Source: Lytechinus pictus (taxonomy: Eukaryota). Taken from it: DNA of 64,000 nucleotides. A program made the translations under genes and the position numbers. The notes beneath the pieces are model-generated. The model saw nothing but the letters and a program-made list of their open reading frames with translations, did no database searches and was not told where the DNA came from. The stretch is from the NCBI RefSeq assembly GCF_037042905.1, contig NC_087245.1:11968001-12032000 (forward strand). Reading direction: 5' to 3'. Shown piece after piece: positions 5,185-63,930 of the stretch (within the stretch, counting starts at the first letter, position 1; each line of letters starts with the position of its first letter).

Positions 5185-5215
<31 letters not shown>

Positions 5216-8200
5216 GGTGATGATGATGATGGTGATGATGATGATGATAATAAAACAGCTTTCATGGTTGTGGGTAGAAAGACAGAAAGACAAGACATAT
5301 CAAATGCAAACTTTGCAAGATGGCTGTGTAAGCAGGAATTTTTTCTGTACCGTACTGTTCCTAAAAAAAACTTTGCACAAAAGTTGAGAATTTTGTGCAA
5401 AAAGTAAGATGTTGATCACTCAAAACTAATGCAAGGTTAGGGATTTTGATAGTAAAAACATTCAGAATGGTCATTTTACATGTTTACCAAATTGATGGTA
5501 GGCCTACCATCAGCCAGCAGAAAGGTGATTATCAGGCCTTCCATTGCTCTTTGTGATTGACTGAGAAAGTTTCCAGGGTCCCATAACACAAAGCTTAGTG
5601 ATTGATTGTACGCTTGATTTTGACGACTGATTGTACATTATAGTCAATGGACTCAATCGTAGAAAAATGTTCTATGATCATTGCTAAGCTTTGTGTTATT
5701 GGCCCCATGTGTAATAGATGTAGCGCCAAGTACATCACTGAAACACTCAAATTGGGACATCTTTTGTTTGCAGTGTAGGAAGTTAAAGAACAAGTATATG
5801 CTGACATCAGGTGAATTTAACCCCCCCCCCCAAAAAAAAAATGAGAGAGAGAGACCAAGGGCTAGGAATATACACTTGACAAAAATGACAAGAATAACTG
5901 AACTTGAATTTACAAAGTTTTGAATTTGTATCCCCTCATTCTGTGAGCAAGTGCCACATAAATATGAATATCCAATGTCAAAGGTGGGGTGATGGAATAG
6001 TGTGATAAGAATTATGTAAATGGTTTTAGAGGCAGTATTTTTAATGTGTCATGGTCATCTCAGAAAGCAGAAATATAAAATTTGATCTTATATTTGTATG
6101 ACTATAATTAAATCATCAAAAATTATTGGACAGTTTTTTAAGATATATTGGATGGTATGTTTTTTAAAGTGAATATTTTCCCCATCCACAAGGTAACTCA
6201 TGATCATATGACTGCGCATCATTTTACGCAAGTGTGCATATACATGTATGCTGTATTCTTGGATTGTGCTACTGTAGATAATCGATTTGTGATGTTACAA
6301 TGCGATCGTCCATAATGTAATAAAATACTTCACAAGTTTGATTTGCATGGTCTGTCCACGTAGTTTGGATCTGAGACAAGATTATCAGTAAATCCACAGA
6401 AAATAACATAAGTTGCCTGTTTTTGTGGATTATAAAACAATAATGGATAAAAAGCTTTTCGGATTGAGTCCTGAGATTAGTCCAGTATTGTTTCCTGACT
6501 CTCCCAATATCTTATCTAGATATATTTCCCCATTTCTCACTCAGTCTTCCAACATTATCTATTGAAAATGTGTCTGATACATGTACAAATATAATTTCAT
6601 TTTTATTGGAAAATAGCTTTTGATGGAAATTGCATCTCCTAACAAATGAGGGAGCTGCTTGGATGTGATGCGATGTTTATAGAGAAAAAAATTGCATTTT
6701 GAAATGTTTCATCTCTCTTTATGTACAAAGTCTACTGGAGTGGAAAACTCACAAGCACTGATGAAATAAACAGTAGGGAATGGACTGGTGACTTATTTCA
6801 TGATAATGTCATCAATCAACCTAAAAATCCATGCATAACTGTTTTTTCCATTCCTACACTGTACCTGGAATTGAATGTGAGGTCCTTCTGTGATACAAAA
6901 TAGGCCTACAATTCAGTATTAGAAAAAAAACGCACCCTGATACAATACATAACTAATAGAGGGTATGAGTACTGTATAATTAGATTGCTCTCAGAGTATT
7001 GGTTGACATTGTAGTACATGTATTGTACAGTACTACCAAGCTCCCTTGACATTTACTTGAAGATTTCCCCCAGCTTACTGCCTGTCTTCAAAGAACTTGA
7101 CATGATAATAATTTTTGTCATCTTTATCTCCATGGATGTGGCATTTGTTTCTAATCCTAACTTGTACACATTCAAATTTTGAAATGATCCTATCCCTTAA
7201 ATCCGGTGTTGTATTGGATTATGAAGCTAATGTTTTAGTCATGTGTCATTGCTTTAATGAAAGATCAGTATCTTATTATCAGCAGTGATCTCATCAGCAG
7301 CTCTGGTTACATGCACGTACAGTATGCAAGAGAACTTGCTGGGTAACAAATTGGGAATCATCAATGCCTGGTAATTTTTGCTTTGATTCAAAACTGCTCA
7401 TTGGCACGTACCCGTGCATAATTCTAAAGTGCATTGAACAGAGATTGACAGGAATTTGGGAGAAAGTGGAGATATAGAGAATGGTGTGTCATGTGTGCAT
7501 TCTTGGCCAGTTCAAGAAATGAAAGCTAGATACTGCAATCTTTAAAGTGGAAGCAAACACTTGAAACCAGTTGGGTTATATGAAAAAAAAACACTATTCA
7601 GAGAAAGATCAATGAAAGTGAGAAAATTTGATAACATAGTTATGATGAACCTTGAATACTTCATATAAGGATATCAGCATATTGACAATGTGACCGAGAT
7701 GTGTGATGTGATAGTTCATCTACTCTCCCCTTTGATAGAAAAAATAATTACCCATTCTCTCATCAATAAAAAATCCAGGGGTAATACACAGGGGCTCAGG
7801 GAAATTTTGCCCCAAAAATACTCAAACAGCAATGAAAATTCAAAATGGAGCCCTAGATAATCCCAATTCATTGCATTGTTATAGCTTATCCAATGTTGGA
7901 GAATTAGGCGGTAGTTTTGTGAGAAGTAGCCCCCGAAATAAAAAATATATACATATACCGGTATATGTTTTTTGCCGGGTACAATCTATTTGCCTGTGAA
8001 ACTAGGTGCATTTTGTGAAATGTGTGTACACGTCTTCCCATACATGTGAGTAGAACCATGGAGGTATTATTAAAAGGATCTACCTATAGACTTGATAAGT
8101 TCAGACAATTTAAGTGATGTTGTCATACTGAATGTCGAACTAAAACATCTCATATTTTCATTCCTATTTTACAGCTCTACAGCAGTTGCTAGGCTGTTTA

Positions 8201-11200
8201 GATCAGATATGTGGGACGATAGGTGAACGGCAGGAGAACCAAATATTCCTCAGGAATCTACTGAACAACAAGGAACTAGCAGCTCTTTGTCAGGTATGTA
8301 TGAGAATGTGTAATATTGTGTAAAACCCTTGTTCAGGGGTAGAGATCTATTTGATTTTGCATGAAATTTATATTTAACTGTGAGTCTGGAGGGTCTTCAT
8401 TATTTCTTATATATTTGTATTTCATCTTTTTTTCATTATTCATACAAGTAGGCATATTCTGTTGTTTTATTCTTTCGGTATAAGTTATATATTTTTGTGG
8501 TTAGGATTCTTCTACAGGAATATGAACTATGCATATTGTAAGTTTATTTCATTTGTACGTTCACATAGACAAAGTCAGTATAATTCTTTATAAAGTTGTT
8601 GATGTTTACCTTCATTTGCTATCCAGGAGTCTTTACCAAGTTTGAAGTTAAAATCTAGATTGGTAAAATATCATCGTGTATTCAGGGTAGTGTTGGGAAA
8701 ACTGCAATTTTTGTATAACAACAAATCTTACAGTACGTTGACTACTAATGATAGAAAACAGGGTTGACAATTACTTGGGACATTAAGGTATTTCCTGCCC
8801 AGGTGGGAATTACTGGGAAAATTTTGTAAATGTTGGGATAAGATGTACAAACAGGTACATGGAAATGCTATGCTTGTCTTGAGAAACACCTGGACAATAC
8901 CTGAAATACTCAAGAAGTATATTTTGTAGTACTATCGTCACTTGTTGGCTTTTCCAATTTTGGCCCAAGATGCACATACGTTGAAAAGATGGAATGAGAC
9001 CTGAAGGCTGCTGGACATATGTGTGTATGCTCACTATTTTTAATTGCTGGACTGGACTGAGGATACCTAAAAAGGCAACTTGACCACTGAACTAAAAATA
9101 AGAATAATAGTGAACAACAGTTATTGCTAATATGAACAATATTAGGAAATGTTGATGTGAAAAGACAGGCACACATGTCACTTGAATAGCCATCATGGAT
9201 AAAGAATTTGTTTGGATAGTTTTAATGTCAATTTGTAACCTGTGTCTTCAACTATTTCTATTAATGATTTATGAACTAACATAGCAACATTCTTCTTTGT
9301 TCTGAATACCCCCACCCCCCTCTGTTGCACACTAAAATACATTAGCTATTAAGAATCATTGAAAATTATGTCCACCTCAAAATTAGAAAGGTTTGAATAC
9401 ATTTTGTTCTACCTGTCAGATGAATGGTTGGTTTAAGTTGAAATAATTCTGATTAATATCTTAAAGGTTATGAATACCATGATACATCACACCAAATCTA
9501 CTGAACACTTTCAAACATTGGATGGTGCTGTGGTTGCTAATCCAACACATTGATAGATAGTTCAAGGGAGTAATATTTCCTGTCGATGAAATGCATAGTT
9601 CCTATTACCAGAAAGTTCAAAGTTAGGATCATTCAGCCCTTGGATCGGGTTTCAGTTTTCCGCTAGTTTACATGTCTTTCTAAATTTGTCTTTGGAGATT
9701 AACTGTTTTTCTATGATGCAATGTAAAGCCCATGACTGATACAAGTGTCATGTTATCAGAGAAATAAATGATGAAGCAAGTTTAAAACAGTAGTTTCCGG
9801 AAGATTATTTTCAGTAATTTCTAGTTTATATTTAACTTGATGTATAAAGGATACATAGCAAAATAGTGCTAGACTTTTTTTTGAAAAAGTGTATAATCAT
9901 GGATAAGTGTCTATCATCTCATTGTTTACCTTTTTTAAAATTTTGTAGTATATTCTGAAATTAATGCATAAGCACAAACTGTGAAATGATAAATTTTCTA
10001 GAAACTTGGCTACATAGTTTTTATTCTCTCAGAAAAACATTTTTTAAACACCCCTTCCCTATTTAAGAAATAACAAGTGCCCTGTACAGTGAATGTGTAT
10101 TGTTAATTATTCGCTGCCGGTGATCCCCCTCCTAAAAATTGCATTGAATTTTTAATCCTGTTTTGGCAGTATTCAAGTGGTATCACCAGTTTGTTTGTCA
10201 GTGCGATTGTAAATGTCAACATTTTGTTGCACACCTATGTTGTACTCTAATATTGCAGGACTTCATACTGTGTTGGGGTAAAATGTTTTGCCCATAAAAT
10301 CGAGTCAAGGATTGTATTTGGTTCAATATTAGTTCACTGCAGGAATTTTGCCAAAGTTTATTCCTGACAACATTGAGGCCAGTTTACATCAGCCAGAGTT
10401 TTTAGTTTATCCCCCTTTTTTGTTCCCAACAAACTCCTGAGCAGAACAAGCTTGAGATCTGTTAGTGGGCAATTTTTTGTATAGGTTTTATAGATGGCAA
10501 TCATAAATCAACAATGGCGCAATAATTGATGACTCATCCAGTGAATTTGCAAATATAGATGTCTGTGTTTTTTTTTCCTAAGCAAATTGTATCATTGTAT
10601 ATTCTACCATTATACTGTGGTATTACACATTATTCAAATATAGCACCCAAAGTGTTCCTGAAGGTGTCTGCTCTGTAGCGCTTCTGTTACATTCCATGCT
10701 CAAGACATAATTTCAATTGGGCTGATGAAAACAGGGTTCCTTGAATCTTTTAGAGGGCTGATTGGGCTCTAACAGATTGAGTAAACTTAGGGCTTAGGCT
10801 CTTTAAAAACTGCCTTTTTTAAATTATCATTATGAAGCATTAAGAGTAGGCCTACATAGTACATGTACATGTTTAAGTCTTCATCATACAGTACACTGAA
10901 CATGTATGCATTTTTTTTTAATCAGCAAAGTGACCAGAAATTAAATCATATTTTATGAGTCACATGTTGTGCACACATTCAAGCTGTTTTTGTTGTTTGC
11001 TTGTTTGCTTGTATGTTTTTTTTTTGTTTTTTTGGGGGGGGCATATTTATAAATGTTTTGACAAACATACATGTATATGAGGAGTAAAAACAATTCTTTG
11101 CAGTAGACCTTTGAAATACCTGCCAACATGTACATGTAAATAACAAGAAATGAAGTTGAAAACCGATTGTTTGGATCTTTCTCACAACACCAATGTTTGA

Positions 11201-14200
11201 TGAGCATTTTCCACAAGCAAGACATCTCTTAGCAAATGTCAAACGAGTGTTAAAATATTCATGAAAATATTTGGACTTTAATATTCTTGCTTTTTTACAT
11301 TGGATGTGACTCATAGGTGCTCCTGTTCTATTACAGGTTGCTATGAAATTTTCTTCTTACAACACATCCATGCAGCTCATCTTCCTTGAATACAAATTAA
11401 CAGATTTCAGAGTTTCCTGCCAAACATAACCAAAAAAAGTAAAGTTGGAGGAACAGCAATGAGCATTTCATTTTTCTTTCAACATCTGTTTTGTCATACA
11501 AGATTAGATTTATTTTCACTGGATCTATAGACTTCCTGACAGACAAACAGATTCCATATCACAGGGGGAAAGGAGGATTTCTTGAAAGCTTGAGGAAGAA
11601 CCGTTCCTCATTTCGCTGACTCCATATTCGTCATGTATGTAGACAAAACTTTGGCTTAATACTTCCTGACAGATGAAAAAGTGTCGCCAACACTCAACGA
11701 GATGACTTTATGTAGGGTTTGTTGATTATTCATGCATTCCATTAGCTGAGTATGTTAATGACTTTGAGGCATTATCCGTACAGCATTGAATCGACCTCCA
11801 CAACAGATGCAGATTTCAAGCGCCACATCAATAAGATTATTGTCATGGTAATCTTTATTTTTAACTCATATCCATCGGGCGATAGAATGTCTGCTTGGTG
11901 ATTGGGAATGAAATTTTCATCAGTGTTCAGAATTTCTTGATAAGTTGTAGTGGGGCCATTTGGATGTTGGTGTCTCACTCATAGATTTATTCACAAGTGC
12001 ACAAACAGTAATAGAAATAAATAGTATTACCAATTGGACTGCAAGAAGTACATACAGCTAGGCTTAATGTCATCTAGCTTTGGTTAGTAAATTTTGTACA
12101 AGATGAACATATAGGATAGGGGGACTTGTGTCACTTGTAGTATAACCAAGGCCTAGCCTACAGAGATGTGTCACTTTGATAAATCCCCTTTTTATACATG
12201 TAGCTTCTGATTGCTGTCATCATCATTAACATCTTTCTCTCAACATCCACTGTTCTGTAAAATGAAATGTTCCAGTATGAAACTATGAATAATCTTTTTT
12301 GATGATGAATGTATTATTTCCCATCAAGATATACTGCCAGTGCCTTCTAGGTATACATGTATGTCTGTAATATGCACAAAGAAAGCTGTTTAATTCTCCA
12401 ATCAAATTTCATGAAAAATATAATATGAATCTTTTAGAGAACTGTATTTCAGATTTAGTTTGAAATTTAGTATTAAATGTGCAGAATTGTCCTTTACAAT
12501 TGAGAATCTTAGCAACGCCAAGGCACTCTACACATGTTTTCTTGTAGTAGTATAATTATCAAATTTCAACCATTTCCTTTATGCCTAGAAGGTACCTTAG
12601 CACTGACACTCACTTTAAAGGAAACCAAACCCTAAAGAATCAGTGTGGTGAAAGATATAATATTTATTCCCACCTAGTAAAGCTATTGATTCATATATGA
12701 TGAGGGATATTTTTCCTTTTGATATATGATATCATCTCTTTTCTGCCTTTCATACCTCAATTTCCATATTCTTTCTCTCATGTTTTTCAATACGTATGTG
12801 TACCTTGTTGAAGTATTTCTGTTTGAAAAACAAGAAACATTTAAAAGCTTGCTGTTAATTGGTACAGTGTATTTATTGATGTGTTTCAAATTCATTATGC
12901 AACTTAATTGTATACTGTGAACTTCTTGTGCTTTTATACAAGAGACATTATATCCCCATTATATATGTGATCTTGACACAACTGAACTGATTTCAAGACG
13001 GGGGGGGGGGGGGGGGGCATTCTACATTTTATTATTTGTGAACATGTACTTTACAATTAAACACAAATTTGAATTTGTAGAATTTAACCATTTGTAAGTT
13101 TAATAAAGAATTTCAAATCAACAAAAGAACATTGTATGATAGGCATTCATGCAGCGCCCTCTATCTGAAAATGATATTTTTCCAAGCAGATTATCATTAT
13201 TGCCACTTCCAGCATTCAGAATTAATCCTATTTACCTCACCTGGGTTGAGTGCAGCAGAATGTGGTATATTTCTTGCTTCAGGAAGGAAAATATATAGAT
13301 GGGATTTGAAACAATTACCCTGTTTGGAGGAAAAGAGTCAGAATCACAAGATCACAATATTTATGCTACGGTAATCAATTTTTAAGTTTGTGTTCCTCTC
13401 CTTATTTATTTTTTCTGCAGGCTCACTCAGTCATTGAAGATTTTGATGAATGGAAGTATCCCCCTGCCGATAACAATGCATTTCAAATGCTATATGAGGT
13501 AATTAATTACATCATTTTTTGTGTGTTACAACAAACCACATTCAAAATTGATTTCCTGTGGTATCCCAAGCTGATCTCCCATCAGCTTTGCCGATCTCTT
13601 TTTTTTTGCGTGTAGAGATGCAGAAACAGGAGTATTAAACAGAAAAGTGTGATGAGTGAATATGCAACATCACAAAATGAAACTTTTAATTCAATTCTTT
13701 TTATTTCAGCTTGGTAAAATAGCCCTCGATCAGCCAATGGCTGGTTTTCAGAAAGGCTGTGCATATACAAACAATACAAAGAATAATTAAACCATAGAAA
13801 AGTGAACAATAGTACAGCTTTAAAACTTAACGACTATGACATACTTTGATGGATTTTTGCCAAACCTTCATTGATATGTTTCTCTCATTTTCCTCCTTTC
13901 ATTAAAACCAACTGGACTTCACAGTCAAGCAAGTTGACTCCCTCTTTCAGTTTTGATGTAGTGAGAAGTGAGACCATATGATGGTTGACTTTACTATCTG
14001 TTTTTAATTCAGATTTTGTTTGTTATATCCTTTCATCTTATCTCAGGTCTGTGAAGAGCTGCAAGACTTTGTCAACATGCCTGAGGTCATGGAACTCTGC
14101 TGCCTGCTCACAAGAGCCCACATGAGGGCAGTGTTTGACATCCATGACCAGATCGCCAACAAGGACTATGTACCAGAGCTTCCCCCAGAGTTCCCAGCTG

Positions 14201-17200
14201 ATATCACTCCCTTGTGTAGTGATGATGAAGAAGCAGGGGTCAAGATAGTCAAACTTGTCAAAAGTGTCGAACCTCTGGTGAGGACAAAATATGAGCAAAT
14301 ATTGGGCATGTAGATGATAATCACATTTTTTAGTTATTCATTATGTTCATTTACTGTTGAGTTATTGTTTCGGCGATTCTGTGTGGTGTTTCATAAACCT
14401 GTTTGTAACATTTATACAACTTTACACACAATTGGAAAGTGTTTTTACTCTAAAGTGCCAAACTAGCTACACAGGGATATATTATTTAACACAAGAACAG
14501 GTCACCAGTTGTGCTCAAAATAATGAGAAATTTACAAACAGCTTTTTAAATGACACCTGGTGTTGTTTACACCTATAAGTTTCCAAGATACCTGTACAGA
14601 TGTGGATATGTTGGCAATGTTGGACCAAAATATAACTACTGTTAAAATTTCATCTTACGAAGTACATGTATACAATCTACAAGTAGAGAGCGGGAAAAAT
14701 TGACTTGCCTGCTGATTTCCCATGTAATTGCAAAGTCAGCCACCAATATCTCAAGGGGTGGGATCTGCTTATTATACAATTTTTTAATGCATGGGAGTGA
14801 TTAAGTAAAGTGTTATGGATTATATTAAGAGTAATCTTTACTCTTTATTTGTTCGTTTTTCAGGGAGCTACGATCAAATATGATCCAAAGACTGGAATGA
14901 TTGTGATTGCAAGGGTGATGCATGGAGGAGCAGCAGATAGGAGTGGTAAGTAAGGGAGATTGCATGGTCCAGCATTGGAATGCTCATTATACTAATGTCA
15001 CATCAATGAAACCAACTCCGAACCGATCAATGATTGGAAATAACATAATAAATTTGGATGATCTGGAGTTAGTTGCACTGGTAGGATTATGGGATTAGCT
15101 TGGAAGACCTTCAATACACATTTGTTCATAGATGCGTTTGCATGCATATTTTCATCAACATTTTTTATAGTCCATGGAAAGGATTTTTGCTCAAGATTTA
15201 AGAGTGAAATCAGGCTGTGCTTAATCGCCTGTGCTACATTTCAACATGATACATGAATCTAACATGAAATATTTGATGAGTATTGTTCATGGTAGCATGC
15301 TTAATCAAAGCATGTGACCTATCAGACCCACAGATAGAAAGTTAAATGTGAAGTGTGATTTGCACTTGACTACTGGTATCTGTAAAATACCTCTCAGATG
15401 GTTAAATCATTAAAATGAAGCCTTGTAAATAAAATTTTGCAAACATCACGGAACAAACGTGAAGGAATGGAAGAAAGAATTTTAACTTTTCCCAACACTG
15501 CATGGCCTTGTAACTTGTATTTTGAATAACTGACCATACAGGTTGGTTCAGGTATTGTGAACCTTTGTAGGCTTTTGCACGTGCATGTTTAGAAGATCCA
15601 TAGGTTCAAGCAGGTAAGGATAAAATGATGATACATGTAGCACTCCTATCCACGAACAACCTGCATATTAAAGGCTCCTCAATAACTTAGCTCGGTAACC
15701 TATTATTGTAGTCAAACTAAAGCATACATAGGGCAGGTCAACATTTACACCTGGGTGGAGACTGACAAATGTTAATCACTGTCCGTCTAAATGACATTAA
15801 TGCAGTGGTGAAACTTGAACATCAGGGTTTTAAGGTCTTTAGACTTCTCCACTGTTCCACAATGCCTGTACATAGTAATGGTAATGAATGTTGGCGTGAT
15901 TCAGTAGTGGGATTTGAACCCTAGACCTTATGGATCACAGTAGACTTTATCCACTGATTCACACACTTGTCCATATCAACAGTTAATGATACAGCATTGA
16001 AATGAATGTGTGGGCATGAGTCCATGCTTCAATTTCTAGGTTAGGATATAGATCTTAAATTGAATTCATAACGGGTGCAATCGGAAGCCAATGTGAGGAT
16101 CAGAGGATTCAAGTTAATGTGTTCTGATTTTCTTCATTTTGTTTATTCTCGCTCACTCAGCAGTGATCTTGGACATAGCTGTAATGCAGATATATGACTT
16201 GTCTTTTATAGATTCATGTATTCCACTTTCCATGCTGTTATAGCCTACAGTGGAGCTGTTCTTGGTTTCAATCAGAAAATATATAAGTGAATTCTACTTC
16301 CATCATTTCCACATATGATGCAGCCCCTCTTCACCTACTAGTATTTTATAACTGGGTGTTGCAAGATATTTGGAATCAATTGCGGGTCAATTTTAGGTTC
16401 TAAAATCAATCATAACTTGTAAAAATAATGACATTATTTGATATAGATGTGTACAGTATGCACATCAACCAACAAGCTGCTATTAAAGGGTGCTCCAATA
16501 TTACCCTGGCTTCTCTTGATGACCTATTAGTGCAAACATACATATAAGGAAATTTATCCCTGCTGGAATGCATTTACACTTTGGTCGCATTGCATAAAAG
16601 TTACTATTATAGTAACTTTGCCATCCAATGGTAACCACCATGGTGACACTGAACAACAGCCAATCAAACTCAAGGATTCTGTGCAAGTTACCATTGCATG
16701 GCAAAGTTACCAAAATGCAATGGGGACCTGATGGAATTGGAACCCTAGACCTTGTGCATCATGGTCTGGAGACTTGTCCACTGATCCATAACTCTTTGAA
16801 ATTGATTGTAGATTTAATGTACAATTTATTCTTTGCTACAGGTATTATGAATTGATTTGTTATGGCCTTTATTGATCTATTCATTTCAGTGGAAACTTAA
16901 ATCAGTTTCAGATAATTTGTTTGCAACCTATTCAAGATTTCTTTCATAATATTCGTCAGCTGGATAATAAGACCTGGTAGCATAAAATGTTTGATCCTGG
17001 ATTTTGATTGACTTTTATAGAGGAAGATTACCATCATTGAAGTCTTGTAAGCAGAGGTCCCATAACTGGGATGTTTATAAAAGAGGGCCCTGAATGATAT
17101 CATGCTGCATCTGATAAAATGATGACAAACTTTACTTGTAGTTTATGATAAAAAGTACATGTTGAAAAAAGGGGGAGGAGTGAAGGGGTGTTCAATAGGT

Positions 17201-50193: not shown

Positions 50194-53100
50194 CTGCAGA
50201 AAGAAAAAAAGAAAGAAAATAAAAGGGTTAAAAATCAGACCTAAATAGTGGGTTACAGATATGACAGAATCGGGAATTGGTTTTGAAGTAACTATCTGCC
50301 TTTTCTTTTCCTACTCCATCTTCTTTCCATTTTTCTTAAAATATTCAGCATATCTTCAAGAATGGAAAACTGTGATATAATTACAAACTATTCCATATTT
50401 TATATTATTGCAATTCAAACAAAGTTCCATTACTTTTCCAAAGTTGAAATGAGTTATTGAACATGAATAGATTCTATCATATTGTCTTACATGGTTATTT
50501 TTTCCTTGATAAAATATATGCTCTGAATATCGCTTTTCTTTAATTCTGAAACCAATCAATGATGAAATAAAGAAAATAAATGCTCATTTGAATTGAAATG
50601 AACTGAATTTGACAGTCTCAAAAATATCATAGTGACAATCTATCATACAATTGCTTGCCCCCTTCTTAACATGTTTGAAAACTTACTTTTCTCTGAAATC
50701 AAGTGACTTAAATAAATCATGAAGTAATGAAATAAGTTACAAAAATAAATTTATTTGAAAAGCCCCAATAAAAAGCTCAAAATAGATGGACACCCAAATG
50801 AAAAAATAATTCATTTTTGTGTAACAAGACGTCAATGAAAAGGGATTGGGCACATTTTGGTCAGTGTTTATACATATATTGACCAACTTCTGTGCAATAA
50901 TAAATAAAATCAATCAAGTTGTACACAATCACACATGACTTGAATTTCTAGTTCAGTTTTACTCTAAATATAATTAATCAACAACTGTAGAAATACCTCT
51001 TCCAGTTGTAATATCAGGCCAAAAAAATAAAATAATCATCTTTCATTTTGAGGGCTACTTTTTACAACCTACTGCCTAATTCTGCAACATTGGATCTTTA
51101 ACATTGCAATGAATTGGGATTTTCCAGGGCTCTTTTGAGCATGGGGGGGGGGGGGGGGAGTTGTCCAAAGCCCCTGTGTAACTTTTCCCTAGTAATTATT
51201 ATCATTATTTTAATTGCTCCAAAAATTTCTGTTATAAAATACACCATATTCATTTAGAGAGAGATCACTTCTTTGTGACTTAGGTGTACAAGAATTCAGA
51301 AATAAGTGAAACAGACTTTTCTCACCTTTCTTCTTGTAGGTTGGCCTGAATTTCTGATACTCTCACTAACGAACGAGCAAACTTGAGATCTACTGATAGC
51401 TGTGTTGTGCTTTCAGCTCCAAGTACATGGATTTCATCACTTGCTTTGGCAGCCTGGTTAATGTAAGAAAGCACATTAAAACAATGAACTAGGATAAATA
51501 TGACCCTCAGCAAAAGACAAGGAAAGAAAAATCATGTTTTAGAGCAAAGAACCAACCAAAACAGAAGAATTGGGGTAGAAACCAAAATTTGATACTTGGT
51601 TGCTGTACCTAGAAACACTATGGTCACATGGCAATTGATGCAGAATGGGCAAAATCTCTGAAACCTTTAGACCTCAGTGATCATGAGAGCTTTAATTCAT
51701 TTATGATGCAATGCATTTGCCCAATACTTCAATCAAAATCATAATAGAGTACAATAAGTCAGTGAAGTGCCTATCATGCTGTGGGTACATTCTGTAATGA
51801 AAAACAAACTCAAGATGTTTGGTAGAAGAATAGGTTACCTGTTTCTCTCCAAATTCAGATGCCCATCCTGTGATATGTTTAGTCAATTCTTCAGTGACAT
51901 AGGAAGTGAGGGAAGTAGATAGCTGCATTTGGGTTGGAATATTTTCTGCAGCACTGGATTCTGAGGGGACCTTTTTGTTGGAGGAGTCAATGTTGTCAGA
52001 GCTCTTCTCAGGAACAGATGACTTCTTATCCAACTCCTCGCCATTGGTTTCTCTACTAGAGATTAAAAAAAACAAAAAAACAATACCGTATATCAAGTAA
52101 CTTCAATAAAGTAGTTCACCATGATTGAAATGATCAGTAAACAAAATTGCTATATCAAATGGAATTCTTTGTTTATATAAGTTAAATGGTGTATTATATT
52201 GTAATTGAAAATTATAAAAGCCCAGTAATTAATATACATTACAACTTCCAAGTTTCACCAAGGTGTCAAATTAAAGTTCTTAAAAAAATCAATTCAATAA
52301 CCATTTATGCATCACTTTCAACAATCTACATGTAGCAAGCCACTTCCAATGCTTACACATAGAAATTTTGCAAACATTGTTGAACATCTAAATGAGATAA
52401 CTACACGCCAAAGGTAAAAAAATAATTTTATGTCTTTCTCTCTATTCCCAAATTTTGTATTTGGTATTTGATTAGAAAAATCACAATGAGAATTCATACT
52501 TGTATAATAAGGGAAATTGTGACTAATTTTTCCAAGAAGAGTGGTGGTCATTGTTGTCATATTCACACCAAAAAAACAACTTCTCTACCTTGACAACTAT
52601 TTATTTTATCCTCATACTACACAAAACATCCAAGTATGCAACATCTAATTGTAGAAATATCAATACTAATATAATAATTAATCACATCAGTACCTATTCA
52701 AGCTGTTCACATGCTGAATAAGCAACTCGTCATACAAGTACAAAATGAAATTAGCTCATGACGTTATGGACTTACTGATTCTTGATACATACATCATTCT
52801 TTAATGACAATGTTAAGTTCAAAATTCTTTAAATTTGCCAATGTTCATTTCTTGGATACTTGGAAACTCACACTCATATAACATTGTGTGTTAATCACCA
52901 ATAGAAATAAAATAAGACAGTTAAAAAAAAAAGAATAAATAAGGAATGCAAATACTTCTGGGTCCTGCTTCTCAAAAATATTTGTCTGTCTCTCTAGACC
53001 ATCCACAGAAAAGTGTTATATATGTAGGTGACCTCTACGGCATATTCACCAATAGGTTGTTTTACAAAAACTTACGCCCAGCGCACACTATGCTACGCAA

Positions 53101-56100
53101 TTGCACCAAGATCCAATTGCAATTGCCAACAACTCAGTGTAATCGCATCACAGGCCAGTGCACACATTGCAACAGCTCTGCAACACGCTGCAACGCCATG
53201 GCACCTATTCTTTTACACGTATGTTGTTTTCGCTGCAGCAGCACAGCAAATTGGTCATGAAGTCATAGTCTAGGACAAATCTGATTGGCTGAATAGCAAA
53301 ATTTCGGAAAAATTGCAGGAAGATTTGACATGTCAAATGTCTGAGATTGGTCTGTGATTCTCCTGCAACAAATTGGATCGCCACTGCAGCGCATTGCAGG
53401 TTGGCGCATACTCTGCGATTTTAGTGCAATCGGATCCTAGTGCAATCGCATCGCATAGTTGTGCACTGAGCTTTATAATCAATTTTAGGTCCCCAAAACA
53501 ATTATAAGTCTTGCAAATTTGCGATTGATTGCTGGCCTGATCCTTGCCTCAACAAGTATTAATTGGTTTGCTTTAGTTAGGACCGACCTATCAATTCTAA
53601 ATTTGCAACACAAGTTTGCAATCATTCGCATGTGTTCTCTTGCAACACCCCCTTCAACTTTTTAGGATGTTGTGAAATATTATAGTGGAAAAAATTGAAA
53701 TGTTACCTTGATGATGTTGTTGGACTGCCTGTCTTCTCTTTGGTGTCCGAAGCCGACTTGTCATCATGTTTATCATCAGATTCTTTAACGTGTTTATCAC
53801 TTTCAGAACTGTTCTCTGTTACAAGAGGCTTGTTGTTTCCAGAACGGTGTGTCTCCTTTGACTTGTCACCATTATGAGATGGTTCTGAATCCATTGTTCT
53901 TTCATCTTCATCCTCCATTTCAATGTCATTATCTACAATTTCATTCTCCTTTTTATTTTGAGTCCTGTCTCTTTCCTTGTCATATTTATTGTCTTTATTC
54001 CTCTCCCTTTCTCGATCACTTTCCCTTTCCTTTTCATTTCTCCTATCCTTATCCCTATCTCTGCTCCATTCTCTATCTCTATCATGATCTCTGTCGCGTT
54101 CTCTATCCCTTTCTCGGTCGCGTTCCTTATCCCTTTCGCGTTCCCTCTCCCTTTCGCGATCACGCCCCTTATCCCTTTCTCGGTCACGCTCCTTGTCCCT
54201 CTCTCGGTCGTACCTTTGCTCCGAATCCCGTTGCCTTTCCCTTTCACTGTCAATATCCCTATTCCTTTCCTTCTCCCTATATCTGTCACATTCTCTGTCC
54301 CTACAATGTGATGAGGAGTTCTTTCCACTACTTGAAACAGATGAGGATGTTGGTGTATGATTTGACGTTCCGCTTCTACTTGAGTGGTGGTTTTTCCTAT
54401 ACCTATCCTCAACAGATGACCCATGAGACGAGCTATCTGCTGTTCCTTTACTGTCCTGGTGAGTTCTTGATGTCCCTGGTGTTGTGTGCTGCAGCCTAAA
54501 GGAAGGGTGGGACGGAGAAGGTGACTGCGAGGCTACAGACATTGGCGACTGGCTTGATAACCCTACAGAAAAGAAGCACAAACGATATACAATATCTAAA
54601 TGCAAGGAATCACTAGAACTTATTTCATTTACTTATTGGACAAATGAATGTCTGACGACTAATGTCTCATTGACTTTTGAACAGTGATTGCAATAAGATT
54701 CATATTTCATTTTGCTGCTGGGGTGATAAACCTTGTACCTCAAAATGTAAAAACAGCTAAGAGAAAGCTTGATTTTAGAGGTCTTGGTATAAGTGCCATT
54801 CTTGCCTGGGAAGAAGTTCTCTACAGGAATGGGAAACAGTTTTTTTAAGGTAATGTAAGGTTGCGGTCATTGCCATATTATTTAAATACACTTTTCCTAA
54901 GAGACCATCAATATTCTTTAATTCTAAAATACGAGGTTCTCATACCTGAGCAATTATTTCCTGTCAAAATGAATAGAACTTTAATTTTAAAAAATAAAAT
55001 TTCATATCGAATGGAAAGATATCATCTCATCTCTCTGAAGAAAAGACATCATGATAATTGAAGGATTGCAAGTTACAATATGATCATAGAAAGGTCTTAA
55101 AATATGTATTATCACATTAAATGATCCATAATCATTCATGCATGACTGGTCACAATTTGCAACTAGCTGAGAAAAACAAACTTTTCTCTTCGTATTATAT
55201 ACAATTCATAAGCCTTGAATGCTTGAGCTAAAGCCGGGGTAATAATAATAGGAGGGCCTGCTTGGAGAACAGTTTTCAAAACTGAAGTGGCTTCACTGGG
55301 TAAATATACTTATATTATTATCATTATTATTGGTATTTCAAGCTTATTTCATCTCTTCCTTTTATAATTTTGTTAATGTATAGTGTACAATAATTCCTGG
55401 GGACACGATACATGTATCAACATGCTTACTTTCTGTAAGTTCATCATTCCTTTCATTTTGATGCGAGTGCCTATCTCTATCTGTTGAAGGTGACTTTGAT
55501 GGGAAAGGTTTACCATGGAACCTAGGAGTGACTGGTGATTGAGTGTCTGCAGGAGACGGTGTGCTTCGTACCCGAGGTGAATCTATCAGGAGACAATAAA
55601 GATACAAGATTCCATGACATGAGCAAATTTTGCTCCAATTGCCCAATTAAAAATCTGCACATTATAAAACTAACCTAATTTTAAACCTTAATATGTACTG
55701 TGCATAAGTGCATGCGCTACGTGACTGACTGATGATTGACAGCTGCATGCAAATTATGTTGATCATCTTCATAATAGCCGACAGTATTATAACAAACCCA
55801 TTCAACAGCGCCCTCTCAAATCCTTGGAATGCATACCTTTGAAAGCAAAAGAATGTACTTGCAGCTAACAATTATTTCATGAGTAAGTGTTTAAAATCAA
55901 GGTTAATTATCACCTTATTCTGGTACAACATAAACTTACCTTTGTGAAATCATGAAATCTTAGCTGAAAACTGACAACACTTGTGATCATTAATGTAGAA
56001 AAGCATATATGGGACAGGGTATTAATCTTCCTTGGAAAAATACCCAACATTTGATGGAATTCCATGTTTATTTTGCTCATTTCTCAGCAATTACACATTT

Positions 56101-59100
56101 TTTCCAGTGCTATCTAGCACATTTTTTTTTTTCTTACATACAAACACTTGGATGGTCATTATATTGGATTCTGCTTGAACTCATTTTGAGATCATAACCC
56201 AAAGTGGCGTTTCTCTTTTATGTCACTTAAGGTATCAAAGATTGACAAAGTAATCTTTACTTATTTTGTGACAAGATATTTCACTGAAGGTGATGTTGTG
56301 TTCTCAATGCAGGAGAGATTGAAGAATATTGAATTCAAACTTTCAAACTGGAAATAGATGACAAGAGTGTAATTCAACATAGTCTAGATGTCAGCTAGAA
56401 CTGATCAATGGCCTAAAAGCGATCTTGAACTATTGATTCTGTTCAAAGTAATAGATAAAATAGACGAGGACCTCAAGGCATTTTTCTTTAAGTCTGTTTA
56501 AAATTTTTGTAAAGATTCAATGAAGTGACTGCTATTTGATTACTCTAATATTACAATCTCACAAATATTCATTAATTATCTTCCATTTACCATTTCTTTA
56601 TGAAAATGTTAATTAGGCCATTAATCAGCACCCTCTCTCTATTTGATATCATTTTGACTCTCCAACCATATACCTCATAAAGATAGTATTTATATTTCAC
56701 AAAGGTATATAAAGACATTGTTTCCATATATTTCCCCATTCCATGCTTGAAAAATGGATTTACACCAAAAGAATTATGGAAATCGCTTGGGATCTGATTT
56801 TTATGATTCAACAATCATAGATCTTAGACTGCATTTCTCATACAACCTATGTTCTATGATATACTAGTACTCTTTCAGCTAATCTTTAAGTTAATTTAAA
56901 CTTATTCGAGGAAAATAAATGCGAACACTTAATACATACTTGGAGATTGGCAGAAACCCAATTGTTTACTCACCGTTATCAGACCCTTTGGGAGGATGTG
57001 AAGCAGCTACAAGATTTTTTAGCCTTCCATACATATCAGTCGCTAGTGACACTGGCATCCTTAAATTGCCTGCCTGCATATCCCTTTTTGAATGCTCATT
57101 ATAATCATTCTGAGTCTTTTCTGTGTTAGGTGGCCTGGATATAGACGATTGGGGATGGCCCGTTGATTTGGGTTGATATTCATGACCCTGTTCTACACGT
57201 TGACTAGAGTGAGACGAGGATGACAATGAAGTTGATTGGCTGCTAGTAGATTTAGCTTGCTGTGATTGGCTGGTTGAGTAACCTGTATTGGTACTGGATG
57301 ACGAAGAATGTGAAGAGGCCGGCTTAGCATGTGGACTGTGAAGCTGAGGTTTGCCCTTTGTCTGGCTGATGTTAGATTTTCTATCCTGCAAGTGATTGTC
57401 AGCTTGTTTCTCAGCTTTATCTGAGGTGCGAGCTTCTCGCTCAATTTCATCAGGCTTGCAATCGCTGGAATGCTTGTCATTTGGTAAAGCTGTAAAAAAA
57501 AGGGTTGGGAAACAGTACATTAATGCAACTGGAAAAATGCTTACACAAAACACCATCTCGTGGCAATACCTCATATCAATAATTTCATGGAAAATCTCTT
57601 TTTGTTTTAATGACTACATAACAATCTATCAAGTAATTAATCTTCACTGTCCTTAACATTCAACGATACATGAAAGGTGACTTCTTTGGTGGGTTTGGGG
57701 TTTTTGTAAATTTTTCCCTTTCTATGAAAGTGCTGTGCAATGGCCTTGGAGAAGACCGAAACTGAAGACCTTAATGTCAGTCAACTGGGGGTGGGGGGGT
57801 ATGCAGATCACAGCCTAGCTCATGATAAAGAAACATTATTCTACTGACACAAAATATTGAACACTGTCCTCTAAAAGGATTTTGATATTCCTCTGACAAA
57901 TTCACTTCAGACAAATTTGAATTCATTTTTCCACATGATATGAAAACTAGTATACAACACATAAGAGGTTTTCCTGGCTCTCTTTATAAAGCCATTGCCT
58001 TCATCAAGCAAGAAATCAACTATTTATCATACATAAGAAGTTAACTAGAAATCCACAGACTTAATTTTCTTTGTAAATGACAGGGTTTGATGTGAGTTTA
58101 CATACCTTTAGAGGACGCAGTAGGGGTAGTTGATGGTTGGTGAGGTGAATCACTGGCACCCAATTTTCCTGTACCGACGACTCGTTGAAGCTTTTCTCTG
58201 GAAAAAAAAAGAAATATGATTCAAAACTTTATATCAAGAGGAAGAGTATATTCGTAAATGAGAAACATTCAATAAAAAAATGTACTTTTATCCACTTGTT
58301 TTTCTATATAACATCTTTTCAGCATTTCATTTGCACTCATGCACAAACATTTGTACACACTTCCATATTAAACCATTCATAGTAGCTAACTTACATAAAC
58401 ATTGTTCATTACAAGCATGCATATTGCTTGATTGGGCTATTCCATGTTGATCAGCTCACTTCTAGATTGCACTAAAAAAGCTTGAAGAGTCCCAAAGCCT
58501 TGAATGAAACAAAGCTTATCAGTTCAAACAGAAATCAAACATTCTTGTTCAGTGAAAATGGCTTATTTTCTGGTTATTTCATTTCCAAGGGTAATATCAC
58601 CATGAGTGTATAAAAGTATAAAAAAACATTTGTAATGAAAGAGTTCGGTAAAATAAAACAAATATGTTCTCAGTACTGAATGGTACAAAGGAAGAAAAGG
58701 AGACACAGGCTAACACACTCTTAAAATACTGGTAACAGATTTACATTGCCCATGTGCCTATGGCTTCATACTATACAGCCTATTAACAATTCTCGCTACC
58801 CCAAATAGCGATTTCGCCGAGATCCGGGAAAATCCCTGTAACGTGCATTGCATTATGGGATAGCTTTTTCGGTATTACAACTTCCTGTTCGGAAGTCCAA
58901 CGCACTGTTTTGCCATTTAGATCAACAGTGCCGTCATGCACAACAACACAACGTAGCTTTCGCTCAGAAAGTTCGTGATCACAACCCTCTCTTTCACTAA
59001 CAGTTTTACAGCCTTTTCTGCTAAAGTCACTAATTCTGCCTGACGCTTTCCATTGCACGGTATTCATCTGTCAGTTAAGATTTTTTTAAGTTCCGAAACT

Positions 59101-62100
59101 GATTTTTATCCATTTTGTGGTCGACGAAAAATTGAACGAAATGAATGCTGAATATATTTAGTGTCTAGTTGAATACGATCGTGATGTCAGGCCGGTCGCT
59201 AAATGCAAAATTTTAAGATATTCATTATTTGTTTGATTTTTTTATAACCAAATAAAAACATGAATAAAAATTATTCTCACGTGAAATATATTTTTTATTT
59301 TTATTTATAATTCAAATGAAATCAAAACTGACCAAATGTAAAACAAAGTATTATACTCTGTACATATTACGCTGATTGGCATCGATTTCAGCGTGGTGGA
59401 AAACTCAGTATCGCGAACCTCGCGCGAGCATGACTCTAAACCGGAAGTGGTGATGACGACCCGACGGAGTGAAAATTATCTCGTCTCGCGCATTATGAGA
59501 TTTTTGTTCCTATTCGGGGTAGCGAGAATTAAATGATAGACAAAAAATCAATACATCATCAAAGATCAGAATATCCAGGCATCCTGTTCATTGTGCTTTA
59601 TAGTAATGCCTTTGTGTACTAAACACACTGCACAGTGAGTGTGGGGCCAACTTCCTTTGATTTCTCCTAGTTTTTTTGCTTTTTCTTATGGGATTATCAT
59701 GGTCTTAGTAATGCTGGAAAGCATATTCAATTATCTGAACTAAAAAAATCAGCAACAGTCACAAGAATGTCAAATTATGACAATATCTCCTTCATTTCAT
59801 TGGCAATTGAAATATATTTATAAAAAACAAATATCACACAAACAAAATTAGTATACATGTAGCAATAAATGAGAAAAAGGTTTATAAAGAGAACTCACTT
59901 TGATTCGAACATTGCTTCGAAAATTCCAAATGCAAGTTACATACACATGTATAGCACTCTAAATGAGTTTGTGAAATGAAATTTATTTTAAAATAATGTG
60001 GAGTTCTAATGGTCCACGGAAAAAGCATAGCAACCTTGTATAACATTGGCCATGTTTCTAATGCATTTTAATCCAAGACCACCAAGTCCACGGCTGAGGA
60101 TGCCCACTCGACTGGGTCTCAAAGACCCTCTTATTGAGCGCCTTTAAGCCCCCCCCCCCCTTGTGTTGTAATATAGAAATGTAGCTGGTTGAAAGTTGGC
60201 CAATATTGACATCTGAGGCCAGTGTAAGCATTGAGCTTCTTATTAGGCCTATATAAGTTTTGATAAGATTTCAGCATTATTACATGTAATAAAGCTGTAA
60301 TAGAAAGTTGATGGCCTGGTCAATATTTGTTCCGGTGTGTGGCCAGACTGTTAAACACAAGTTCATATAAGTCATAGTGTGACTTCTATACCTGACCATT
60401 CTTGGAACTATCAAAGTTTGACTTTCTCCCCATCTCTTGATTTTTAAAGGCACTAGAGCAGGTAAGTCAAATTGCACAAAACTTGCCATATGACTTTGCT
60501 AAGCAAGGCAACTATATGTAACCACAGTTCAATTGCTATCATAAGCATGGTTTGAATCAACAAATACCAATTATTACAAATTTACCAATAAAAATTACAT
60601 GTGAATGTATTATGCAATAGAACCTTACAGAACCAAAGACACAAGCCTTATTGCAGAGAAATTGCCATTAAAGATAACTTTGATAACTTGTATGGTATCA
60701 CAGCTCAGACACAAATCAAAGCAAGGTGTCTAAATGAAATACAAATGATCAAAATGGTAGATTTGATGAAATAAGATCAGAGAATCTCTTACCTCTCAAC
60801 CCATTCCTTTGGCTTTTCCCATTGTGACACTTCTGTTCTACAGTTGTAGTAATACTTCTTTCCTGATGAACTCTTGTGTTCAGACCACTCTTTGGCCTTT
60901 TCCAAAATCTAGAGGGATAATTGAAGAAGGAAAACGAGAGAGGGACAAAAACAGAGATATTTAACAGTCATCCCAATGTAAGTCATGTGACTTTCATTCA
61001 AAAAATTAATCTTTGTCAAGATTAACTGCTTAAAGATTCTATTTTGCTACAAGTTACTGTCTAATCAACCAATTAAATTTGCTTGATATCAAGCTCACAA
61101 CTCCTATTTCTGAAAAATTCTGGAATTCTCATTTTAAAGCCATTCAAAAAGAAAAAAACCTTTCCTGGAGAAATTACAGTGGTACTCGATAAAAGCTGAC
61201 TGGTACTGTACATGCAACAAGAACCATTAGGAGAAAACCTGAACTTACTGTTTTGATATGCCGTTCATGGTCAGCTGAATGGTGTGAATTTGGAGGAGTA
61301 TGGAATTGATGATTTGCCGTCTTGTTCTCTGTATTTTGAGTAGAGTTGGCTGAATTGACAGCAGCATCATCTGTAAGTGGAATATTTAAAAGAAAAAATA
61401 CAGTAAAAAAGTGATCCACAGTTCAACAAAGATAAAATATCCTTTATATTAATAATATAAGTCAGTCCTAACTCTTATTCTATCCCTCAACGTTTCACAA
61501 AATATGAAATCAAGCAATTTCATGCTTACCATGAGTGAAATTACCGGTAACTATACAATTTTGTAGAATATGTCAATGGTGACAAACCTGCCTCATTTTA
61601 TTGTAAATACATGTACAACACACATCCTATGACCAAGTGAGAGTGAATTATACATGTAGATCAATGATTTTTAAGTACACACTGGCCAAGATGCATTTAA
61701 TTTTAAAAATGAATTCTCATGACAAACAAAATATTATCAGCAACTATACCTGTCTACTAAAATTTACTTAAATCTGCGGATATTGTACTGCACATAAAAA
61801 AAAGACACTTGAAAATGTACCAAGTGCTCTAAATTGCTTGTCATAATCATCTCAGTTACTGTCATAAGAGTACCACATGGACCACATGTATGATTGAAGC
61901 TTTATTTTCACTGAATTCAATGACCATTTGAAAACATAAATTTAAGTACATACACTTATTTTGAATAATTACATAGGGGAAGGCGGGGTAAGCTGAGCAT
62001 AGGGGCAAGTTGAGCCACCACCCCCAGGCCAATAATGAATGAGTCGGACATTGTGGTGGCGTCATGTATTGATGACCCATTATATTACCCCTAACCCCAC

Positions 62101-63731
62101 CACAATGTTTTCAACTTTGAAACAAAAAGTACTCTTTTTGAGGGAAAAATACAAATTTCAGCCAAAAAAGTAAAAAAGGGTGTGAAATAGATAAGTGCTT
62201 TTTACACACACACACACACACGTCTTTAAATATAATACAGACATGAGAACAACATTGTTAGTCCAGGTATGGATCTTCATTCTTGCTATAGTCTTTTAAA
62301 TGATGGATGCATAAGAAATGTGTGGATGCGAAATTATCGCATTAAGTTCGGACTGGGGTAAGTTGAGCCAGCCAACATGGGGCAAGTTGAGCCATGGTAC
62401 TTCTTATGGTAATGTATATATATATTTTAAAAAAAAACATTAAAAAGCCATAGATATGCAGGCAGAAAGGAGCAAGTTTGCATGACGTTCTTTTCCTTTT
62501 AGAGGATGTTAGTATTTATAGAGAATTAGCAAGTGAAAAGACTTTAAATAAAATAATTGACATGCTGGTTCTTCCCCCATACATTTTGTACGTAGTTTTT
62601 GTGGCTCAACTTACCCCCAGAAGGTGGCTCAACTTACCCCACATATGGGGCAAGTTGAGTCATTTGACATCTATTTTTTCAAAGGTGACAATGACTTTCA
62701 GTGTGGGTGTAGAAAGTTATGTATAGGTGAAAAATATTTCATCAGAAATAAATTTTATGGCAAGGTACTTATTTCTACAAAATTATTAATCATATCAGTT
62801 CTAACATGCAAAAAGCAAGAATTTTCACAACTTACCCCGCCTTCCCCTACTCTTGTCCTTGTTATACACAGTGCTCAAAGTGTATGAAAGATATGTATGA
62901 AGCAATGTTTTCACTTCACATTCTTGCATAAAAAAATCTTGATGTCCCATTTTTAAGTAAGAGTAAACATGATAGTTTGATAAACAATAAGAACTTAATA
63001 TTTGATTGAATTTTAGAAACATCAACTAAATGTCTTTCTTCATCCCTTTTCTTTTTAAAGTATTATATTTTAAAAGTTCTTGAGTACTTTGTAATAGAAT
63101 CATTTGACTTTTTTCCCCTGAAATGATTAGCCTTCAGTTTTTCTATTTGTTAGGGAAAAGGTTCATTATTTTTCTACCGTAATTGCCAAATTTACATTGA
63201 ATTAAAAGACTTTCTCTTAAAATCATCGCTAACAGTGAAACAACTCGTAAATATAAGATTTTCGCATTGAACAGATTGCAACAAGAATGATCACCTGGTT
63301 TGCCTTTATCTTTCTGTCGCTGCAAGTACATGTTTTTACTGATGACGTTCCTAGGACTGTTTTGAGTAGATGCTGGATGGCCGTCAGTGTTTTGATTGGT
63401 TGATATATGGCTTCCAGTAGCCGATGATGAAGGCACAGGTTTCTTTCTCTCCCTTTCCAGTGCCACCTCAGTGATATCAAGATTGTTTGAGTGGTTCTCA
63501 ACACCCTGCTGTAATATCAACAACAAACACAACTTAATCAACTACTAGTATGCACTCATGTACACGCATACAGAGATGGTAGAACTCCAACCCCCCCCCC
63601 CAAAAAAAAAAAAAAAATGGGGTCAAATAAAAAAAAAATCTTTGCACATTTTGCATTTCGTTATAAATGATTAATAAAGATATTACTTTCAACTGACCTG
63701 GAAAAGATGGGCATCATTCCTTTCATGGAAC
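50124..63731 (-). CDS. WAC: WW domain-containing adaptor with coiled-coil (5'-partial). Coding exons: 63698-63731, 63295-63505, 61249-61370, 60793-60908, 58106-58197, 56974-57489, 55430-55582, 53707-54562, 51839-52052, 51326-51453, 50124-50193
   Basis: Phase-compatible GT-AG exons totalling 2512 nt. WW domain [30 protein letters not shown] and C-terminal coiled coil [43 protein letters not shown] closely match vertebrate WAC as remembered. First coding exon lies outside the window. Confidence 0.95.
51326..51453 (-). CDS. WAC: WAC exon 11, coiled coil (AAKASDEIH...[18 protein letters not shown])
   Basis: ORF 51322..51513; acceptor taaccag, donor AG|gtgaga. Confidence 0.95.
51839..52052 (-). 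CDS. WAC: WAC exon 10 (ETNGEE...[16 protein letters not shown])
   Basis: ORF 51701..52096; tandem TAGTAG acceptor (start 52055 or 52052), donor CAG|gtaacc; H..GW....EKQ motif of WAC. Confidence 0.93.
53075..53472. mobile_element. PIF/Harbinger-like MITE with TTA target duplication
   Basis: TTA|cgcccagcgcacactatgc ... gcatagttgtgcactgagct|TTA; internal tgca/cgca-rich repeats. Confidence 0.7.
53707..54562 (-). CDS. WAC: WAC exon 9, Ser-rich plus long RD/RE mixed-charge tract
   Basis: ORF 53703..54605; acceptor ttctgtag, donor AG|gtaaca; 856 nt, phase 1 to 2. Confidence 0.88.
55430..55582 (-). CDS. WAC: WAC exon 8 ([11 protein letters not shown]...NDELTE)
   Basis: ORF 55362..55646; acceptor ctgatag, donor A|gtaagc. 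Confidence 0.83.
56974..57489 (-). CDS. WAC: WAC exon 7, Ser/Thr/Gln-rich disordered region
   Basis: ORF 56966..57574; acceptor ttttacag, donor G|gtgagt. Confidence 0.88.
58106..58197 (-). CDS. WAC: WAC exon 6 ([30 protein letters not shown])
   Basis: Acceptor ttttccag, donor G|gtatgt; phase 2 to 1. Confidence 0.85.
58792..59526. mobile_element. 735-bp non-autonomous DNA transposon flanked by AATT (possibly Sola1-like)
   Basis: AATT|CTCGCTACCCCAAATAG ... CTATTCGGGGTAGCGAG|AATT; CpG-rich interior inside a CpG-poor intron; superfamily tentative. Confidence 0.8.
60793..60908 (-). CDS. WAC: WAC exon 5, WW domain
   Basis: [39 protein letters not shown]; acceptor cctctag, donor AG|gtaaga. Confidence 0.97.
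61249..61370 (-). CDS. WAC: WAC exon 4 ([10 protein letters not shown]...HERHIKT)
   Basis: Acceptor cttacag, donor ACA|gtaagt; phase 1 to 0. Confidence 0.85.
61976..62847. mobile_element. 872-bp TA-flanked pogo/Tc1-mariner-type MITE in WAC intron 3
   Basis: TA|GGGGAAGGCGGGGTAAG ... CTTACCCCGCCTTCCCC|TA perfect 17-bp TIR; multiple internal GGGG(C/T)AAGTTGAGCCA motifs in both orientations; (CA)n at about 62204-62221. Confidence 0.92.
63295..63505 (-). CDS. WAC: WAC exon 3 ([10 protein letters not shown]...KDKGKP)
   Basis: ORF 63143..63541; tandem CAGCAG acceptor (start 63508 or 63505), donor G|gtgatc. Confidence 0.82.
63698..63731 (-). CDS. WAC: WAC exon 2 ([11 protein letters not shown])
   Basis: Acceptor tttttacag, donor CAG|gtcagt; resembles the short second exon of vertebrate WAC (CHDRRGDSQPYQ). 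Confidence 0.75.
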
Positions 63732-63930
63732 CTGTAAAAACAACAGAAAAAAGGACATACATGTAAGAATACATATTTTATACTCATTTTACATGAAGTA
63801 TGGAAGGGTCATGTGCTTCTTATTTCCCCTTTAAATTATGGGAGATCCCTCTCCCTTATGATTGCATTACTAAAAAAACCTAGAAGTCTTTGCAGTGACA
63901 CAAAAATTCATCTATCTGCAACGATGCATG

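Follow-up and report, generated by a model that had tools for sequence, protein, structure and literature searches.

TA-bounded palindromes in a 64-kb stretch of Lytechinus pictus DNA are probably excision footprints of several transposon families

A stretch of 64,000 nucleotides from Lytechinus pictus (assembly GCF_037042905.1, contig NC_087245.1, positions 11,968,001 to 12,032,000, forward strand; hereafter the window) was analyzed, and the results showed an excess of the palindrome TACATGTA and of sister words with the same TA-core-TA build. We consider that these words are probably fossil end-joining footprints of several TA-targeting families of the Tc1/mariner/pogo type. The excess, the TA borders and the sister words are established, while we infer that there was an insertion, that a transposon caused it and by which route the break was repaired. 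Sharp TA borders, cores independent of their flanks, tandem units, absence from repeats, a TA-GG...CC-TA element and the presence of the words in another eukaryote together make footprints the likelier origin.

A first-pass annotation of this DNA had given 33 coordinates for TACATGTA and described the word as more than 10-fold enriched. Every one of these coordinates reads TACATGTA and one further copy was found at 52327, so that the window holds 34 copies against 2-4 expected, an enrichment of about 10-fold.

6241, 6578, 7015, 10860, 11068, 11131, 12195, 12354, 14663, 15632, 18211, 19283, 19608, 19788, 22643, 23725, 25158, 25445, 25451, 28070, 30351, 31653, 33200, 34977, 41874, 42487, 48640, 52327, 55409, 59854, 60281, 61608, 61651, 63758 (span 6241..63765, no strand): copies of TACATGTA

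The window has 34.6% GC and a CpG observed/expected ratio of 0.37, and Markov models of its whole length predict 2.3, 1.8, 3.1 and 3.8 copies at orders 0, 1, 2 and 3. With the motif cores masked from the background, the expectation was 2.7, 2.8 and 3.3 at orders 2, 3 and 4 (P ~6e-25), and the maximum in simulated sequences (40 runs each) was 8 copies at order 2 and 14 at order 4. An unmasked order-5 model climbed to 16, because TACATGTA inflates its own background. The excess thus persisted in the Markov-background check that had been set in advance, and TACATGTA ranked first among the 8-mers of the window once C and G runs were set aside. Its density is ~0.5 per kb, or one copy per ~1.9 kb. 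The copies lie outside coding exons, as had been claimed (0/34 overlap, with 22 approximate exon intervals placed by hand, several of them with imperfect borders). Of the 34 copies, 32 lie in CpG-poor kilobases (57 of the 64 kilobases are of this kind), and the first 6.2 kb, containing a CpG-rich stretch, is without TACATGTA (P=0.03).

Examination of the 16 palindromes of the form TA-xy-y'x'-TA showed an 11-17 fold enrichment for three of them and a weaker one for two others. Against the masked background, TACATGTA was counted 34 times vs 2.8 expected, TACTAGTA 7 times vs 0.61 (P=3.5e-6) and TAGGCCTA 5 times vs 0.30 (P=1.7e-5), and the weaker pair was TACCGGTA (2 vs 0.29, P=0.035) and TAGTACTA (3 vs 0.6, with two copies inside a TACTAG run). 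Since three of the 16 words are enriched, a single protein site would not explain them. TACCGTA/TACGGTA was the best among the 32 TA-NNN-TA words (8 vs 1.9, P=8e-4 before correction), and TAGCCTA/TAGGCTA was not significant in the window (6 vs 2.9).

3040, 3046, 16336, 19630, 28844, 56862, 63543 (span 3040..63550, no strand): copies of TACTAGTA
230, 5499, 6901, 10847, 60244 (span 230..60251, no strand): copies of TAGGCCTA
7956, 61542 (no strand): copies of TACCGGTA
5348, 13367, 27805, 32552, 41993, 43484, 52084, 63175 (span 5348..63181, no strand): TACCGTA/TACGGTA
28839..28851 (no strand): mixed stack TA-GCC-TA-CTAG-TA, two cores with one common TA

Two of the TACTAGTA copies lie within a run of CTAGTA units at 3030-3060, in the CpG-rich upstream region. 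The excess depends on the TA border, because the remaining 15 palindromic NN-CATG-NN words sum to only 31 vs 26.9 expected. When the 16 doubled dinucleotides were compared as borders, TA yielded the strongest words by far, and strong enrichment was confined to the TA-bounded versions of CATG, CTAG and GGCC, as a duplicated TA would have it.

The core of TACATGTA was found to be independent of its flanks, with flank symmetry at background level except at 60281 and at 19608 (8/12 pairs complementary at the latter); hairpin repair, read from flank symmetry, was rejected on the same ground. An imperfect 34-nt palindrome at 60268-60301, centred on the copy at 60281 with 10/12 flank pairs complementary, could be another kind of scar. 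The flanks had been called unrelated, which holds for most copies but not for the palindromic one at 60281 or for five in tandem CATGTA runs. Tandem CATGTA units stand next to 5 of the 68 half-sites vs 0.9 expected (P=0.003), and the other 29 of the 34 copies are without one. Such units are expected if a scar itself serves as a target, and slippage fits too; the same two readings apply to one overlapping pair:

25445..25458 (no strand): overlapping TACATGTA pair with one common TA, a stacked scar or slippage

The flanks of the 29 non-tandem sites (58 half-sites) lean weakly towards ATA-[site]-TAT, with 78 matches vs 60 (P=0.0025) for a pattern picked after the data had been seen; this pattern may resemble the target preference of the Tc1 family. 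None of the 34 copies falls in 18 hand-picked repeat intervals totalling 7,883 bp, where 3.8 were expected (P=0.017), and the four palindromes pooled gave 3 vs 5.4 in the same intervals, which is not significant. Comparison of paralogues within the window found no motif inside any alignment of two different copies.

In the mechanism that we propose, a TA-targeting cut-and-paste element would insert at a TA and duplicate it, and its excision would leave each flank with a 3' overhang of a few terminal bases. Germ-line end joining would seal these overhangs and turn TA into TA-CA-TG-TA (+6), while families with other ends would leave TA-CT-AG-TA, TA-GG-CC-TA, TA-CC-GG-TA or TA-CCG-TA. Because introns would tolerate 6 bp better than whole elements, scars would accumulate, here to ~0.5 per kb, and outlive their parents. 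Sealing might proceed by fill-in of two 2-nt overhangs, or by 2-bp pairing within 3-nt overhangs from the ends CAT, CTA, GGC and CCG. The pairing route also predicts TACCGTA and TAGGCTA, whereas CATG and CTAG would have no three-base partner; the counts in the window agree roughly with this.

Two features of the window bear on possible parents of such scars.

61976..62847 (no strand): 872-bp element with GG...CC terminal inverted repeats and TA on both sides
609..620 (minus strand): TA-flanked element end, CACTG followed by TA, with two look-alike ends

The element at 61976-62847 is a candidate parent type for TAGGCCTA scars. It begins GGG, and this start of the sole parent seen favours the fill-in route. 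No convincing CT- or CC-ended TA-flanked element was found in the 64-kb window, and no transposase was identified among five window open reading frames (ORFs) scanned. The end at 611-620 had been cited as that of a Tc1 element. Its letters are present as described, but its look-alikes at 1039 and 32933 are not TA-flanked, and it probably does not come from a TA-target element; presumably ends of this type are hAT-like. A partner end of this element (618) was not seen in the window.

The words were also found elsewhere. Four pooled contigs of another eukaryote (L011, L043, L051 and L067, with related accession prefixes) contained, after masking of the first query-matched stretches, 20 copies of TACATGTA vs 1.3 expected, 6 of TACCGGTA vs 0.2 and 3 of TACTAGTA vs 0.2. 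These contigs had been chosen for TACATGTA and not for TACCGGTA or TACTAGTA, and part of the 20 copies sits in a tandem array, which L043 is. Different cores stacked on one common TA were observed at L051 2021-2034 and at L067 3143, 4913 and 7223, and at L051 2922 a possible CAG-ended element begins on the last TA of TACCGGTA. Motif-cluster scans returned 3, at least 117 and 57 stretches, and at least three separate clusters were present in 26 of 175 loci; most clustered-motif matches, including the metagenome matches to the triple motif, were simple repeats. In the cluster-locus alignments, 6 of 103 six-letter gaps matched a scar unit. These were rejected as support, three lying in simple AT-rich repeats and three being rows from the tandem array L055, where slippage fits equally, and the alignments held no clean case of a dispersed pair of scar and bare TA.

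To compare the sites with their orthologues, four of the eight runs that contain part of 10001-20000 were aligned with 10701-19900, which covers 11 of the 34 TACATGTA sites. Three runs gave a relative ~5-6% divergent and the fourth, X8, was nearly identical to the window; the state of each site was judged from alignment offsets and gap totals.

10847..10873 (no strand): TAGGCCTA at 10847 beside TACATGTA at 10860, plus a tandem CATG unit; the relative has the same net length (run X6, with offset 52 at 10825 and offset 126 at 10899)
11068..11075 (no strand): TACATGTA; relative aligned from 11069, with the first T uncertain
11126..11138 (no strand): tandem ACATGT-ACATGTA, with the copy at 11131; net length the same in the relative (runs X5 and X1, with offset 40 at 11108 and offset 84 at 11152)
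15632..15639 (no strand): TACATGTA; record 19 (X6) has 14 gap letters, all of them away from the motif, and its contig is possibly a repeat copy; another contig (X8) lost 4 letters at most
18211..18218 (no strand): TACATGTA; the relative's contig piece has 2 gap letters and a left flank of 6 letters only

The site at 11068 is not a bare TA in the relative, because the alignment starts at the second letter of the motif. The TACATGTA sites at 19283 and 19608 and the TACTAGTA site at 19630 share one common piece with 8 letters lost. Of the 11 TACATGTA sites compared, five could be resolved and two bounded to at most one loss, the other four being 12195, 12354, 14663 and 19788.

Several results weigh against the footprint reading. 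The first-pass annotation had proposed looking for a bare TA at orthologous sites, and 0/5 resolvable sites were empty in the relative; at most one of 19283, 19608 and 19630 can be empty there, because only 8 letters were lost. No scar unit appeared as an indel among the 12 indel rows listed of 283. Steady scar production predicts 21-24% young sites and 0/5 then has a probability of 0.25-0.30, so the result is unsupportive rather than refuting. It favours neither insertion nor selection, being consistent with scars that predate the split and also with conserved sites, and most copies appear older than the split from the relative. The one-mismatch neighbours of TACATGTA exceed expectation at the outer base alone (30 vs 14.6), the inner bases giving 21 vs 17.2, 16 vs 17.3 and 9 vs 7.3, and even if old scars had decayed neutrally, more such neighbours would be predicted; an excess at the outer base only fits a burst shortly before the split, or a protected core. 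Mixed stacks were not significant in the window (1 vs 0.9 expected) or in the four contigs of the other eukaryote (3 vs 0.9, P=0.06). No convincing CA-ended parent, TA-CA...TG-TA, was found in the 64-kb window. The +4 scar TACATA/TATGTA showed no enrichment in the window (73 vs 65.4, P=0.19), nor did TACAT and TACAG show any excess there past that of TACATGTA. C. elegans germ cells, according to PMC13148408, mostly use homologous repair, which is scarless. The claim of excision scars rather than a protein-binding site therefore stands in part: the indirect evidence favours TA-site footprints, with none of the five orthologous sites empty.

The strict Tc1 label is doubtful as well. The somatic scar of Tc1 in C. 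elegans is +4 in 78% of cases (PMC13148408), and this usual scar is not enriched in the window; the missing +4 scars argue against a plain Tc1 copy and mildly favour the pairing route. The three-base footprints TACAGTA/TACTGTA, of the Sleeping Beauty type, had been called frequent; they are present at the four cited places, but are not enriched in the window (16 vs 11.2, P=0.10).

Footprints of this kind are already known as such. Tc1/mariner excision leaves 2-3-nt 3' overhangs, and the end-joined footprint consists of the terminal 2-4 nt between TAs (PMC3878927, PMC6943129); pogo-type Passer leaves 0-4 bp (PMC9976928), and PMC7386202 yielded the target duplications of pogo families, though not their terminal bases. 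The words in the window would share with the footprints of Tc1 and Tc3 in C. elegans the TA target, the CA...TG ends and the end joining, and TA-CA-TG-TA itself is a recorded Tc1 footprint (PMC13148408, PMC3520976). There, however, taCATGta is a rare footprint, +4 dominates and germ-line repair mostly brings the element back, whereas here the +6 word is dominant and the words are inherited. As with Sleeping Beauty (PMC6943129, PMC3878927), terminal bases would lie between two TAs, and TACCGTA/TACGGTA has the same build, although the canonical Sleeping Beauty words are flat here. Stowaway/Osmar5 in grasses (PMC1925063) comes close as well, with TACT...AGTA as the inferred Stowaway footprint, inherited at orthologous intron sites, and likewise with re-insertion beside an older scar; those are single loci with varied scars and not the top word anomaly of a region. 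In Phytophthora, TACATGTA (motif-1, M93, AM-20) and TACCGGTA (M94) are over-represented promoter motifs, the same palindromes and abundant in non-coding DNA (PMC3520976, PMC3597505, PMC11134190), but they are read there as transcription-factor sites, while ours are intronic and come with further sister words. PMC3520976 mentions the Tc1 footprint as well as matches to Irx, but sets the footprint idea aside on account of abundance and conservation. The literature search, with most subscription papers and all supplements outside it, returned no animal-genome report of these words or of a dense, uniform, multi-family inherited footprint record.

Among the other explanations, we regard as unlikely that insertions at TA arose with no resident transposon involved, as through a repair or nuclease process that joins an invariant short palindrome to breaks within methylated gene bodies. 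The lack of a CA-ended parent in the window, a scar more uniform than laboratory Tc1 scars, the TACATGTA-free first 6.2 kb and the same words in distant eukaryotes would all agree with it. It would need an outside template, because the cores are independent of their flanks, and we know of no process that adds fixed palindromes. The cores moreover begin with CA, CT, GG and CC, which are frequent at the ends of TA-target elements, and the window contains one GG-ended element. About equally improbable, and marginally more so, is that the words are selected binding sites of an Irx-type homeodomain, MYB- or BEN-like factor across gene bodies. Irx is cited as preferring TACATGTA (PMC3520976) and PsMyb37 binds it in Phytophthora (PMC11134190); all five resolved sites are kept in the relative, and the inner bases are little decayed while the outer base varies. 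Against such selection stand the similar enrichment of sister words with other cores, the spacing of one copy every ~1.9 kb with avoidance of the CpG-rich upstream region, and the tandem units, which selection leaves unexplained; 31 motif letters without a listed change are what neutrality gives at ~4% local divergence (an estimate, P ~0.25).

That alternating purine-pyrimidine tracts (TA, CA, TG) grew by slippage or in the manner of microsatellites and drifted to TACATGTA seems improbable to a greater degree. Such growth would suit the five copies in tandem CATGTA runs and the simple repeats among the metagenome matches, and a 4-bp duplication would also fit at 11068, but it leaves out the 29 copies without a tandem unit; TATATATA, TATGCATA and TACACATA are not enriched, and TACTAGTA and TAGGCCTA do not alternate. 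Least credible by far is that TACATGTA is the CpG deamination end product of TACACGTA, TACGTGTA or TACGCGTA in methylated DNA, for which the CpG depletion of the window and the concentration of copies in its CpG-poor kilobases might speak. TACACGTA would decay equally to TACACATA, and TACGCGTA to TATGCATA, and since these equally likely products are flat (TACACATA/TATGTGTA 4 vs 4.7, TATGCATA 3 vs 2.1), CpG decay was ruled out in the window. The precursors themselves number 1 vs 0.6 and 0, and the sister words cannot arise in that way. The excess thus came through this check too, which the first-pass annotation had named as a possible refutation.

The window contains further features. A MAGUK gene of the p55 type, with L27 and guanylate-kinase domains, occupies 8176-38973 on the plus strand, and a second gene, which we take to be WAC-like, lies tail to tail with it at ~51300-63500 on the minus strand; MPP7 and WAC are neighbours in vertebrates too. 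A ~650-bp inverted-repeat element with TTAA-like borders is present at 4108-4745 and 24188-24863, the two copies being ~78% alike. Short inverted-repeat elements at 43426-43643 and 33264-33401, with G-run ends after CTG or CAG, are presumably Harbinger-like. An element at 47218-48351 has about five internal repeats of 150-200 bp, and its start recurs at 63931-64000; an inverted-repeat element of 750 bp, rich in CpG, lies at 58785-59531, and its open frame of 95 codons has no Pfam match. Contig depth exceeds that of single-copy DNA more than 1,000-fold for a repeat at 13230-13265 and several hundred-fold for one at 16590-16720, and a 20-22-nt piece of a high-copy repeat had 0 matches in viral, metagenome and prokaryote collections.

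A genome ordinarily gives no sign of past excision events, and a uniform inherited scar would allow them to be counted and dated by simple word statistics and alignments; it would also reveal strong differences in germ-line repair among animals. We suggest, tentatively and as the less likely outcome, that sea urchins and several distant eukaryotes seal germ-line transposon breaks by clean end joining, leaving a footprint code of TA-core-TA words that records excisions by family and outnumbers the surviving elements, and that TACATGTA and TACCGGTA of Phytophthora originated as scars that transcription factors took over later. In these genomes TACATGTA will come out of motif searches as an Irx-like site, bound or not, and the footprint reading offers a route by which transposons may seed ready-made binding sites.

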